NCBI GenBank assembly: GCA_031266345.1
Contig: JAISBD010000023.1
Span: forward strand, 6,289-70,288
Length of the DNA stretch: 64,000 nucleotides
Origin: Puniceicoccales bacterium
GTDB taxonomy: Bacteria > Verrucomicrobiota > Verrucomicrobiia > Opitutales > JAIRKQ01
Direction of reading: 5' to 3'
The position numbers and the translations under genes were made by a program. Every line of letters begins with the position of its first letter. Position 1 is the stretch's first letter. The notes beneath the pieces were generated by a model. That model was not told the origin of the DNA. It made no database searches and was given only the letters and a program-made list of their open reading frames with translations. Positions 44,920 to 47,332 of the stretch are shown here, one piece after another.

Positions 44920-46554
44920 ATGTCAAGCTTAATAGATAGTGCCCCAGATCAAGTCCCCTTGGAGCATCTTCCTGCAGGGGAAAAAAGTCCCAGTGTATCC
45001 GCTGTGCACCAAACAACTGGCCAACCTGCGCTGGCTCAAGACTCTCAAAACCTTTCAGACCAATCCCTAATAGGAAGGCGGGCGCAAGTGAAGGAAGCTA
45101 ATAAATCTCTGGCTGCGCACGTGCCTAGCCCATCAACGCAGGGAGATCCTGATGCGTGGAAAAACCTTAAGAATAATGCCACCTTGCTTTCTCCACCCAA
45201 TCCCAGAATGGTCACAAAATTGGCGGAAACTCCCCTGGAAATATCTTTTAATATGGAAGCGCCAATCAATGGCGGGAATTGTAACAGGATATACCTATCC
45301 CAGGATGGGCGCTTTATCTTCAAACCCCTTCCTAGACATTCTTCTTCAAGTGTTGGTGCCATTTTAACTCACTGCCCCATGGCTTCCGCAACAATTCTAG
45401 CCCAAAATACCGAGTTCACCTATGAAGTTTCCCAAAGCGTCTGTGAACAATTTGCCAACAAGCAAAATCCATTCGTGAAGCCAAATTTTGGCTATTCCCA
45501 GGAAGGAATTGTGGGCACAGCTTTCCCCTTGGTTGAAGGTTTTTGTCAATTTGCTCAAATTAGCCCCGACCGCCTGGCTAACCTAAGCCCAGAGCAGTGG
45601 GAACAGGCCATAGTGGATCTGCAAAAAATTGCTGTGGTATGTGCAATCACAGGGCAGAATGACATTAATTCTGCAAATATTGGTTTGGGGAGTGATGGGA
45701 GAATATATGTGGTGGATTATGACCTGTGTAGTCCCGCCTATGAGCCCCTCATCGAGGGTTTAGATACCTACCTCGATAGAAAATCCATGCCAGGTGCCCT
45801 GTGCGTCGAACTTCCTCCCCAACTATCCAAAGAAACAATTAGCGCACTGAAAAGTGGAACAGCTGTCGCCAAGAGCAGTGCAAAGAAGATATTTGCAGGC
45901 GATGAAAAAATTAGGAAAACCAGGGACAAAATTAAAAACACAGCAATTTTGGAGCCTATTGCAGATACTTATGAGGGTGCGGAAGAAAAGATCGCAGAGG
46001 CAACGGATGCAAACAAACCTACCATGGCAGGGATCCGCACAATGCGAATGCAAGGGGACATACTTTCCGGTTTGGACATGAGCAAAAAAGAAGATGTGTT
46101 CAAGGCTCTCATAGGCGTAAGCACCGGTGAACCGGTTATGAGTTTAACGGTGCAAGCGTTCTTCGCAGCTACCCCAGAGGAAAGGGGCACTTTGCTCAAG
46201 TCTATTAGCGATGAGCAAGTTGACGCTTTAGTGACAGGGGTATTTTCGCAAGGTGAATGCATAGATAAGGTCATTTACACCAGTCCCGAAGCTATAAAAA
46301 ATTTGCTGCTAACCACGATCGATGAGGCTGGAGATGGTAAAGCGGAAGCTGATAGGAAGCGGAATGACATTGGAAAGAAAATTTTGGATCTAGGCAATAC
46401 CCCGAGGATAAAACCGGGATTGTCAGAGGCCTTAAAACAGTTATCGGGGAACGGAGAGCTTGGCGATGCAACCTTGGCAAGCTCAGTATTTTTGCAACTT
46501 GACGAAGCCACAAAAAATAGCTTATTGAGTTCAGACAGCTTAGTAACAAGTTAA
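44920..46554 (+). CDS. candidate T3S effector B, paralogue of the 36917 ORF with degenerate kinase-like motif
   Basis: 544 aa. Ser/Pro/Gln-rich disordered N-terminus. INGGNCNRIYLSQDGRFIFKP (Gly-rich loop plus Lys) and ITGQNDINSANIGLGSDGRIYVVDYDLCSP. Confidence 0.6.
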   Translation: MSSLIDSAPDQVPLEHLPAGEKSPSVSAVHQTTGQPALAQDSQNLSDQSLIGRRAQVKEANKSLAAHVPSPSTQGDPDAWKNLKNNATLLSPPNPRMVTKLAETPLEISFNMEAPINGGNCNRIYLSQDGRFIFKPLPRHSSSSVGAILTHCPMASATILAQNTEFTYEVSQSVCEQFANKQNPFVKPNFGYSQEGIVGTAFPLVEGFCQFAQISPDRLANLSPEQWEQAIVDLQKIAVVCAITGQNDINSANIGLGSDGRIYVVDYDLCSPAYEPLIEGLDTYLDRKSMPGALCVELPPQLSKETISALKSGTAVAKSSAKKIFAGDEKIRKTRDKIKNTAILEPIADTYEGAEEKIAEATDANKPTMAGIRTMRMQGDILSGLDMSKKEDVFKALIGVSTGEPVMSLTVQAFFAATPEERGTLLKSISDEQVDALVTGVFSQGECIDKVIYTSPEAIKNLLLTTIDEAGDGKAEADRKRNDIGKKILDLGNTPRIKPGLSEALKQLSGNGELGDATLASSVFLQLDEATKNSLLSSDSLVTS

Positions 46555-46588
46555 TTGAGTTGTTTTTATCTGAAAAGGAGTGATAGAA

Positions 46589-47332
46589 ATGAATTTAAAA
46601 GTAGGACAAAAGCCAGATGTGGCGCCATCGGAGCACGCTCAAAGTAGCGCAACTTCGGCAGCGAAGGACCTATCGACGCAGTTTGTAACGCTGCAGAATA
46701 TGGGAGAATTGGGTTCTTTCGGAACTTTCAGAAAAGCTCCGAAATTTTCCGCCGAAGAATTGCACCAACGAAAAGTGGAATTTTGTGCGACCTATGGCAT
46801 AGCCGAAGATTCGCATCTGCTGGCTAGTGCACTCGAAATGAAGGATAGCATGGGCAATGAAAAAGCACTTTGCTTCTCCTCTTTTCCGGAAGAAGTGGTG
46901 GCCCTCGAAGAAAAATTGCAACATTCCATTGAAAATCCTGACCAGATATTTACTTGCGCAGGGGAAGGGTATAGGCGAATGACACTGGAATGTTTCCTGA
47001 ATGGTGCGTCAGTATCCCTTGAAGTCCCAATTGGGTCATACGATTCTCCCGCACGCATGCAAGGGATAATAGGTAGTGCCGCTAACCAACTGAATGACTT
47101 TATAGCTAGTGGATCCTTAAACAGATTGGCAAGTATGTCAAACAGCGACCACCGCATTACGATTATGGGAGGGAGTGGAATATTCTGCTCGATTGCCGTT
47201 TATCCAGAAAAGATTATAAGTGAGGGTGACAATGTGCCCTTCGTACGGAAATGTGCTTCCGGATGGAAATGTACAAAGTTTATAAAAAATGCCATCCTGG
47301 AGAACATTCCCTTTGATGACTTGCTGAAGTAG
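46589..47332 (+). CDS. hypothetical protein co-transcribed with effector B
   Basis: AAGGAG 8 nt upstream of the ATG at 46589 (the track's GTG is at 46580). 247 aa with a polar N-terminus. No family recognised. Confidence 0.55.
   Translation: MNLKVGQKPDVAPSEHAQSSATSAAKDLSTQFVTLQNMGELGSFGTFRKAPKFSAEELHQRKVEFCATYGIAEDSHLLASALEMKDSMGNEKALCFSSFPEEVVALEEKLQHSIENPDQIFTCAGEGYRRMTLECFLNGASVSLEVPIGSYDSPARMQGIIGSAANQLNDFIASGSLNRLASMSNSDHRITIMGGSGIFCSIAVYPEKIISEGDNVPFVRKCASGWKCTKFIKNAILENIPFDDLLK

Follow-up and report, generated by a model that had tools for sequence, protein, structure and literature searches.

A kinase-like gene and its downstream partner

The DNA analysed here is a 64,000-nucleotide (nt) stretch of contig JAISBD010000023.1 from a Puniceicoccales bacterium (hereafter the window), in which two adjacent genes on the forward strand, B and B2, form the locus of interest. 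Open reading frame (ORF) B (44920..46554) codes for a 544-amino-acid (aa) putative kinase-like protein of an undescribed, lineage-restricted family. It begins with an ATG that is the first codon after an in-frame stop and ends with a TAA codon at 46552-46554. ORF B2 (46589..47332) begins with an ATG and codes for a 247-aa protein, a conserved and presumably non-catalytic partner module of B-type kinases; an alternative GTG start at 46580 would give a 250-aa version. A third ORF on the same strand, A (36917..38560, 547 aa), codes for a protein that is distantly homologous to B and has a catalytic loop of the DRH type (G232, K248, D355-R-H357, N360, D373 and D375). An earlier reading of the window, made from its letters alone (hereafter the sequence-only reading), had singled out A and B as nearly equal in length, which they are, and all of the peptides that it quoted were located in the ORFs.

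Residues 1-95 of B (44920..45204) form a low-complexity region, a candidate secretion-signal or chaperone-binding region, in which S, P, Q, T, A and G account for 54% of the residues, in agreement with the Ser/Pro/Gln-rich N-terminus described before. This region is not conserved in the family alignment, and AlphaFold 2 (AF2) modelled it with a predicted local distance difference test (pLDDT) score of ~25. No Sec-type hydrophobic segment was found anywhere in B, and within residues 1-95 the maximum 19-residue Kyte-Doolittle value is 1.23. The predicted kinase-like catalytic core spans residues 99-290 (45214..45789), as delimited by the family alignment, by hhalign alignment to the core of A and by the PDB matches of a joint profile of both families. 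It contains a Gly-rich loop followed by a beta3-type Lys, INGGNCNRIYLSQDGRFIFKP (residues 116-136, 45265..45327), in which G119 and K135 are invariant, and a putative catalytic loop, T244-G-Q246-N-D248-I-N250-S-A-N253, with a predicted metal-binding D266-Y-D268 (45649..45723); residues 243-272 read ITGQNDINSANIGLGSDGRIYVVDYDLCSP.

Members of the B family

Neither B nor any other member of its family matched a family in Pfam, NCBIfam or PADLOC. A word-indexed search of 5.8 billion proteins returned one homologue of B, P0002 (53% identical), and two homologues of A, P0003 and P0004 (36-37% identical), while the word-indexed search with a profile of A returned P0003 only. An exhaustive HMMER search of 1.84 billion representative proteins with a profile built from B and P0002 brought the B family to 11 proteins in total (P0001, P0002 and P0005-P0013). 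They fall into clade 1 (B of the window, P0002, P0005, P0008 and P0009), clade 2 (P0006 and P0007) and clade 3 (P0010-P0013). For 7 of the 11 clusters the source was checked, and in every case it was a termite-gut metagenome or metagenome-assembled genome (MAG). P0002 is encoded on contig JAITOW010000008.1 of a Puniceicoccales MAG (Verrucomicrobiota, Opitutia), and a scan of a genome collection gave no match beyond the Puniceicoccales contig.

Not all members are intact. P0005 is truncated inside the catalytic loop, and P0008 and P0009 are pieces of a single B homologue that extends over three reading frames as a result of two frameshifts (L011:2554-3775 and L012:440-1574), with no B2 gene downstream. 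This broken copy is present in two assemblies and is either a decaying gene or an assembly error. Turnover of this kind among B-family genes would be typical of effector families. P0007 (789 aa, L004:4705-7074) carries its B-type domain C-terminal to ~480 aa of Pro-rich sequence with a 'DGDCFF' string; an OTU-like cysteine protease domain, considered because of this string, was rejected, as Pfam gave no match even at an expectation value (E) of <=10.

Homology between A and B

BLASTP produced a single alignment between A and B, restricted to the 30-aa loop (40% identity, E 3e-4), and thin full-length profiles of both proteins were aligned by hhalign with a probability of only 31%. The catalytic-loop segment of A (residues 350-379) reads LTGQVDRHDSNVNISSAGWPVGIDHDLCFP. 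When the core of the 11-member B family was compared with the core of the 3-member A family, hhalign returned a probability of 85-88% (E 6.5e-7 to 3e-6) over 176-204 columns, with the Gly-loop/Lys segment and the catalytic loop both in register. The score of this alignment was 47.9; with shuffled columns it was 13.9±2.6 (40 shuffles, maximum 20.3), and with the alignment reversed 13.7. The N-lobe half alone scored 36.2 (10.3±2.3 when shuffled, E 7.6e-6) and the C-lobe half alone 31.8 (9.4±2.0 when shuffled, E 9.2e-6). A profile of the B family only, run against 427 ORFs of the window, also retrieved A as its best non-self match (E 0.004; next match, E 0.84), and it revealed no additional B-type copy in the window. 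The alignable core proposed in the sequence-only reading is thus recovered by profile-profile comparison, and the similarity is not confined to a short motif, since the N-lobe and C-lobe halves are each significant independently. On the strength of these alignments we regard A and B as homologous beyond the 30-aa motif, as putative kinase-like cores.

The A family (A, P0003 and P0004) is the closest relative of B that was found. It shares with B a G..N..Y.S.DG...K[PL] N-lobe motif, a T-G-Q-x-D-x-x-x-x-N loop and a D-[HY]-D-L-x-x-P segment, and A and B, both of ~545 aa, are encoded in the same genome. Unlike B, A keeps the Arg-His of the catalytic loop and has a 190-aa helical N-terminal domain, a different C-terminal domain and an adjoining gene for a CesT chaperone. 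The C-terminal halves of A and B gave no alignment with either BLASTP or hhalign and are unrelated, as had been claimed for them. The two genes had also been explained by duplication of an effector gene followed by divergence. However, a simple duplication within this genome does not fit a core identity of only ~16-20% and the existence, elsewhere, of closer relatives for A and B each. On these grounds, the split between A and B is old, and the two proteins are best read as ancient paralogues from sister families, not as a recent duplicate pair.

Conserved residues and resemblance to known kinases

When six B-family and three A-family cores were aligned with MAFFT without guidance, exactly eight columns were invariant: G119, K135, T244, Q246, D248, N253, D266 and D268, in the numbering of B. 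Their equivalents in the protein-kinase-like fold are the Gly-rich loop, the beta3 Lys, the catalytic-loop Asp, the Asn five residues on and the DFG-equivalent Asp. The T-x-Q ahead of the Asp and the second Asp of D-[YH]-D are, as far as this alignment indicates, a signature special to the A and B families, and the predicted signature of the whole clade is G-x-x-N...[FIL]-K-P, [IL]-T-x-Q-x-D-x-x-x-x-N and D-[YH]-D. The Gly-rich loop and FKP lysine that had been noticed in B are the segment at residues 116-136, which holds two of the eight invariant columns.

Single-sequence and thin-profile searches of the PDB with B and A returned nothing relevant. The joint A+B profile matched 69 PDB sequences at E<=10, the best 60 of which were all kinases aligned on their catalytic and DFG loops: SMG1 (E 0.028), PI4KB (0.04), AKT2 (0.1) and mTOR (0.4), then PI4KA, CDK4 and PKC. 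With the B-only profile, the best PDB match was the spectinomycin phosphotransferase APH(9) (E 0.11), through the catalytic loop. The segment of B comprising the catalytic loop and D266 aligns with DRHxxN...D[FY]x of SMG1 and PI4KB and with HSDIHAGN...DWD of APH(9).

These matches bear on whether the resemblance between A and B could be convergent, or a motif shared by chance, with B not kinase-like. Such an explanation could draw on the 30 residues that are all BLASTP aligns, on the 31% probability of the thin full-length profiles and on the lack of a confident three-dimensional model. However, two separate regions are each significant, collinear and similarly spaced, the best 60 of the 69 joint-profile matches are all kinases in the correct register, and no ORF of the window other than B itself matches the B-only profile as well as A does. 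Chance similarity is therefore largely refuted already, and we give it very little credence. Because the AF2 models were unusable, the kinase fold is deduced from motifs and weak profile matches; in our judgement, the kinase-like fold of B is well supported by this convergent weak evidence, short of being proven.

Among known enzymes, the domain of the phosphatidylinositol 3- and 4-kinases (PI3K and PI4K) and PI3K-related kinases (PIKK) (PF00454; SMG1, PI4KB, mTOR) resembles B in the order and spacing of D-x-x-x-x-N and in a metal-binding Asp ~13 residues later. The A family is nearer to this domain than B, with its D-R-H-x-x-N loop and with sub-threshold matches of A, P0003 and P0004 to Pfam PI3_PI4_kinase (E 0.0016-0.04, 14-19 bits against a cut-off of 27.1, profile positions 128-180). 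In contrast, none of the 11 members of the B family matched PF00454 at E<=1, and B has T-x-Q-x-D for G-x-G-D-R-H, D-Y-D for D-F-G and D-I-N with no D-R-H, lacks the helical or C2 accessory domains of these kinases and has a much smaller core (~190 aa). The resemblance to type II PI4K suggested in the sequence-only reading was not borne out, as no type II PI4K chain occurs in the best 60 of the 69 PDB matches and the N-lobe profile alone matches no solved kinase. The alignment with APH(9) (PDB 3i0o) covers only 23 residues (QsDlnakNvvwGkDgklyvvDYD against HSDIHAGNVLVGNEESIYIIDWD). Aminoglycoside phosphotransferase (APH) enzymes lack the disordered N-termini and partner modules that B has, and B has no Pfam APH match. 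In its sequence features, B would be most like a small PI3/4K- or APH-type phosphotransferase, lying outside PF00454, the type II PI4Ks and HipA.

The catalytic loop of B and the pseudokinase question

The D-I-N-S-A-N loop of B had been reported to lack the His and to retain the Asp, the Asn and the Asp of Y-D-L, and the sequence is as reported. Where A has D-R-H, the B family follows the pattern D-[ILM]-[HNG]. No B-family member has an Arg after the catalytic Asp, this position being I, L or M instead, and the next position is H in P0009-P0012, N in B of the window, P0002 and P0007, and G in P0006. Thus P0009, which is 49% identical to B of the window, has D-I-H against D-I-N. K135, D248, N253 and D266/D268, on the other hand, are invariant in the B family and across both families. 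Because His, Asn and Gly alternate among otherwise similar members, the His position appears to be under no family-wide constraint; unlike the Lys, the Asp, the Asn and the Asp, it would simply not be constrained.

The step from a lost Arg/His to a pseudokinase, taken in the sequence-only reading, is not supported by this distribution, given that the Arg occurs in no member, the His position varies between H, N and G, and the catalytic residues are invariant. One may still suppose that B is catalytically dead, or repurposed for AMPylation or glutamylation as SelO and SidJ are, with B2 as its activator or substrate. The missing Arg/His would then reflect changed chemistry in a loop that reads D-I-N-S-A-N instead of D-R-H-x-x-N, and the fact that no conserved alphaC-type acidic residue was seen would point the same way. 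Weighing against this, the Lys, the catalytic-loop Asp, the Asn and the two Asp of DxD are invariant in both families, the His/Asn/Gly alternation occurs among similar members, and the His at this position is, as far as is known, also absent from eukaryotic protein kinases and from APH enzymes. Although effectors with a repurposed kinase fold exist (for a review covering SidJ, see PMC9950578), we consider a pseudokinase unlikely. Since B keeps the Gly-rich loop, Lys135, Asp248, Asn253 and Asp266, together with Asp268, it is most likely an active kinase.

B2, a conserved partner module

B and B2 are separated by a 34-nt spacer (46555..46588) that carries an AAGGAG ribosome-binding site at 46575-46580, 8 nt ahead of the ATG of B2. 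The 247-aa ORF and its ribosome-binding site were therefore correctly described in the sequence-only reading, except that the gap is 34 nt and not 35. A site scan, in which promoter- and terminator-like sites were no more frequent than in shuffled sequence, showed no terminator-like hairpin between the two genes. B and B2 are probably co-transcribed, judging from the short gap of 34 nt, the lack of a terminator and the fact that their adjacency is conserved.

B2 had been called an orphan. Instead, each of the six intact loci, the window included, has a B2-type gene immediately after its B-family gene. The gene following P0002 (L001) codes for a B2 homologue with 47% identity (E 2e-74) after a gap of 3 nt; those following P0007 (L004) and P0006 (L007) code for homologues with 25% (E 5e-11) and 23% identity (E 1e-7), respectively; P0010 (L008) is followed by a 212-aa B2 (hhalign 98%, E 7e-15); and P0012 (L009) is followed by a B2 homologue 42% identical to the C-terminus of P0011 (E 8e-45). 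P0011 itself (672 aa, L006:3304-5322) is a natural fusion, in which a B2 domain at residues 478-663 is joined to the kinase-like core (hhalign 97%, E 7e-11). The fused locus is syntenic with the split locus of P0010, and iPGM follows in both. In the split locus, the P0010 and B2 genes lie in different reading frames (starts at 5001 and 6331), so that a fusion needs more than one change and a single sequencing error is unlikely to have produced it. Ranked by identity to the window pair, the B and B2 proteins fall into the same order, with the pair of P0002 closest and those of clades 2 and 3 far more distant.

B2 is acidic (pI 4.6-5.4) and has no family in Pfam, NCBIfam or PADLOC and no relative in the PDB. 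Across seven B2 sequences, only F65, P100, F121, F136, V146, G149 and L180 are invariant, and no conserved polar residue stands out as a candidate for catalysis. Because the partner domain occurs both split and fused, we predict that B and B2 form a physical and functional complex. B2 would be a non-catalytic module of ~200 aa acting in this complex with the catalytic domain of B, as a regulatory or a target/substrate-recognition subunit.

Several candidate relationships of B2 were tried and set aside. A cholera-toxin-B-like match of a 4-sequence B2 profile (E 0.07) disappeared with the 7-sequence profile and was judged to be due to chance. The C-terminus of A, which has 'DGG...FC' strings in common with B2, does not hide a B2 module (hhalign probability 0.4%), and an acidic 229-aa ORF upstream of A has no similarity to B2. 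B2 is also unlikely to be a class I chaperone, being larger, without a CesT match, fused in P0011 and accompanied in the clade 2 loci by a separate chaperone-like ORF. A scan of metagenomes with B2 patterns gave no match; these termite samples are apparently missing from that collection.

A search for a B2-type partner of A gave nothing significant. The sequencing run that yielded the window also yielded the A homologue P0003, whose gene precedes a 240-aa ORF (L010:316-2938 for the pair) in which a 'VPFG + helix' core weakly resembles B2; hhalign aligned it to B2 with an E of 0.013 and a probability of 3%. If this match were real, the two-gene module would be older than the split between A and B.

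The arrangement of the two genes also suggests another function. B and B2 could be a toxin-immunity or toxin-antitoxin pair, in which B is a toxic kinase that B2 neutralises in the producer cell. An enzyme gene closely followed by a gene for a small acidic protein, conserved in six loci, is what such a pair would look like. HipA-type kinase toxins belong to the same broad superfamily; HipA and HipBST are kinase-like with a D-x-H-x-x-N-type loop and show split versus fused domain organisations between related systems, the antitoxin HipS of HipBST corresponding to a domain that is fused in HipA. However, no member of the B family has a HipA_C or HipA-coupling Pfam match at E<=1 or a PADLOC match, a helix-turn-helix (HTH) antitoxin is absent, as are delivery domains of the Rhs, PAAR or CdiA type, P0011 joins B2 and the kinase-like domain in cis in one polypeptide, and chaperone-like ORFs of the type III secretion system (T3SS) kind flank relatives of B. 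B further differs from HipA/HipBST in that its partner gene lies downstream and not upstream, in that no HTH gene adjoins it among the window ORFs, and in its T3SS genomic context. We regard a toxin pair as distinctly improbable.

Genomic setting and secretion

The window is chromosomal and carries rpoB, dusB and dprA along with genes for EF-G, SecY, enolase, CTP synthase and F0 ATP-synthase subunits. On the reverse strand, 54976..55632 codes for the T3SS export-apparatus protein SctR, with 262.9 bits against the NCBIfam SctR equivalog (cut-off 208.6) and 175.8 against the FliP equivalog, under its cut-off of 217.45. We take this genome to encode an injectisome-type T3SS. The adjacent ORF (55616..56905, reverse strand) codes for a SctQ-like protein with a FliN/SpoA C-terminal domain (Pfam FliMN_C, E 2.8e-14; best NCBIfam match SctQ, below cut-off). 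Its conserved domain is preceded by ~300 aa of extremely acidic tandem repeats (111-nt unit, 5.5 copies, 87% match, 55995-56602) of the type GGE(S/V)...EERDSGEDE.ADEAPET.D, which is unusual for a T3SS C-ring protein.

Convergent with A lies a gene on the reverse strand (38680..39171) for a CesT-family (class I T3SS) chaperone (Pfam CesT, E 9.5e-14, 52 bits against a cut-off of 22), and directly upstream of A, on the forward strand, is the 229-aa ORF mentioned above (36132-36821), which is very acidic (pI 4.1) and has no family. A, the chaperone and this ORF may constitute another effector module. Further upstream, 34911-36056 (reverse strand) holds three consecutive prepilin-type ORFs with N-terminal methylation motifs, one of which matches protein G of the type II secretion system (E 3e-25); type II secretion pseudopilins are thus encoded close to effector-like genes. 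A gene at 58690-60237 (reverse strand) codes for a TLC-family ATP/ADP (NTP/NDP) translocase (Pfam E 2.6e-172; NCBIfam above cut-off). TLC-type ATP/ADP translocases are typical of intracellular bacteria, and the gene points to a putative intracellular, energy-parasitic lifestyle. Termite-gut protists harbour verrucomicrobial intranuclear and cytoplasmic symbionts of the 'Nucleococcus cluster' (PMC8204192).

Chaperone-like genes also occur beside relatives of B. A 144-aa acidic ORF upstream of P0006 has a near-threshold CesT match (E 0.0014; 19.2 bits, cut-off 22); in the matching position upstream of P0007 lies a 141-aa ORF that is likewise acidic (pI 4.05). Beside P0002 and its B2 gene (L001:2083-3593) are an acidic 141-aa ORF, chaperone-sized and with no Pfam match, and a 354-aa ORF with a GHSLGG lipase-type motif and weak matches to Lipase_3, Mbeg1-like and alpha/beta-hydrolase families (E 0.03-0.06); these neighbours may form a small effector island. 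Upstream of B in the window, 44216-44743 (forward strand) codes for a basic protein of 174 or 175 aa with no family and with the signal-peptide/lipoprotein-like N-terminus MFRSLFFLLPVLCLQQLANC; a terminator-like hairpin at 44819-44831 lies between this ORF and B.

The sequence-only reading had likened the N-terminus of B to those of T3SS substrates, and the setting fits, with SctR and the SctQ-like protein in the window, CesT beside A and the near-threshold CesT-like ORF beside P0006. Genes for an injectisome-type T3SS, for chaperones of the CesT type and for an ATP/ADP translocase are all present in the genome, and the N-terminus of B is long and disordered, with no Sec signal. On these circumstantial grounds, T3SS delivery of B can be proposed, and B2 would probably be a substrate as well.

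The surroundings of B could also be taken to mean that it stays in the bacterial cytoplasm, as a small-molecule kinase of the APH/choline-kinase type acting on a bacterial metabolite or an antibiotic, with B2 as an accessory subunit. The best PDB match of the B-only profile, APH(9) with its Brenner-type loop, is of this kind, and the B locus lies amid the housekeeping genes dusB, dprA and that of a DegT-family aminotransferase. However, a housekeeping role accords poorly with a family found only on termite-gut metagenome contigs wherever its source was checked and with the absence of an APH Pfam match. Long disordered and non-conserved N-termini, pseudogene decay and a near-threshold CesT-like flanking ORF are traits of an effector family. 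For these reasons, a small-molecule kinase seems to us quite unlikely.

Secreted bacterial effector kinases, among them the LegK family, Lem28, HopBF1, OspG/NleH and XopC2, have been reviewed (PMC9950578; for XopC2, see also PMC8445998). Like the B family, they are lineage-restricted and highly divergent kinase-fold proteins, often recognisable by their catalytic motifs only and often dependent on a partner. They reach their targets through the secretion systems of host-associated bacteria, as is predicted for B. No sequence relationship between them and B was detected. The partners also differ: OspG is activated by a host factor, ubiquitin/E2, whereas the partner of B is a bacterially encoded, probably co-transcribed and sometimes fused module. 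Host inositol hexakisphosphate activates Lem28, and activator dependence is common among effector kinases (PMC9950578).

A predicted effector kinase and what it would mean

We favour, with a modest degree of confidence, the view that B is a kinase of a small undescribed clade of the protein-kinase-like superfamily, that it works with B2, is probably active and is probably delivered by the T3SS into a eukaryotic host cell. B and B2 would be made from the adjacent genes, and B2 would bind B as a regulatory or substrate/target-recognition subunit. B, probably together with B2, would then be delivered by the T3SS into the host cell, plausibly a termite-gut protist, and inside the host B would phosphorylate a lipid or a protein of that host.

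Several observations weigh against this view. For B itself, none of the matches to solved kinases or to Pfam kinase families is significant taken singly, and a PDB search with only the N-lobe profile (GxxN...FKP) retrieved no kinase. The AF2 models, with a mean pLDDT of 36 for B (2-sequence alignment) and 47 for A (3-sequence alignment), could not be used, and Foldseek with the model of A returned only armadillo/importin helical-repeat noise (E>0.1). Between K135 and the hinge, no invariant acidic residue was seen that might serve as the alphaC Glu partner of this Lys; the residues conserved in this stretch are N163 and T167. No chaperone gene adjoins B in the window, where the ORF upstream is basic with a signal-peptide-like N-terminus. 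Finally, toxin and immunity genes are classically laid out in this way too, with the second gene immediately behind that of the enzyme.

Effectors with a highly divergent kinase fold turn up repeatedly in host-associated bacteria, and to our knowledge almost all of those described come from Proteobacteria and Chlamydiae. The B locus is a candidate from an uncultured verrucomicrobial lineage with a T3SS and an ATP/ADP translocase, and it adds two families that have no Pfam or NCBIfam model. It introduces no new principle, since kinase-like effectors and accessory subunits are both already familiar. What would be new are the catalytic signature common to two paralogous families and the conserved, bacterially encoded partner domain that occurs both split and fused. 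A bolder and more doubtful proposal, which we advance only tentatively, is that B/B2 and its sister family A represent an unrecognised 'TxQxD' kinase clade that is obligatorily coupled to a novel split/fused module and is injected through the T3SS by Puniceicoccales-related intracellular symbionts of termite-gut protists, where it would rewrite host phosphoinositides or signalling. If this were true, the effector system would have evolved independently of those of Chlamydiae and Legionella. With its two genes, the B locus would offer a small system in which to study the manipulation of termite-gut eukaryotes by their symbionts.

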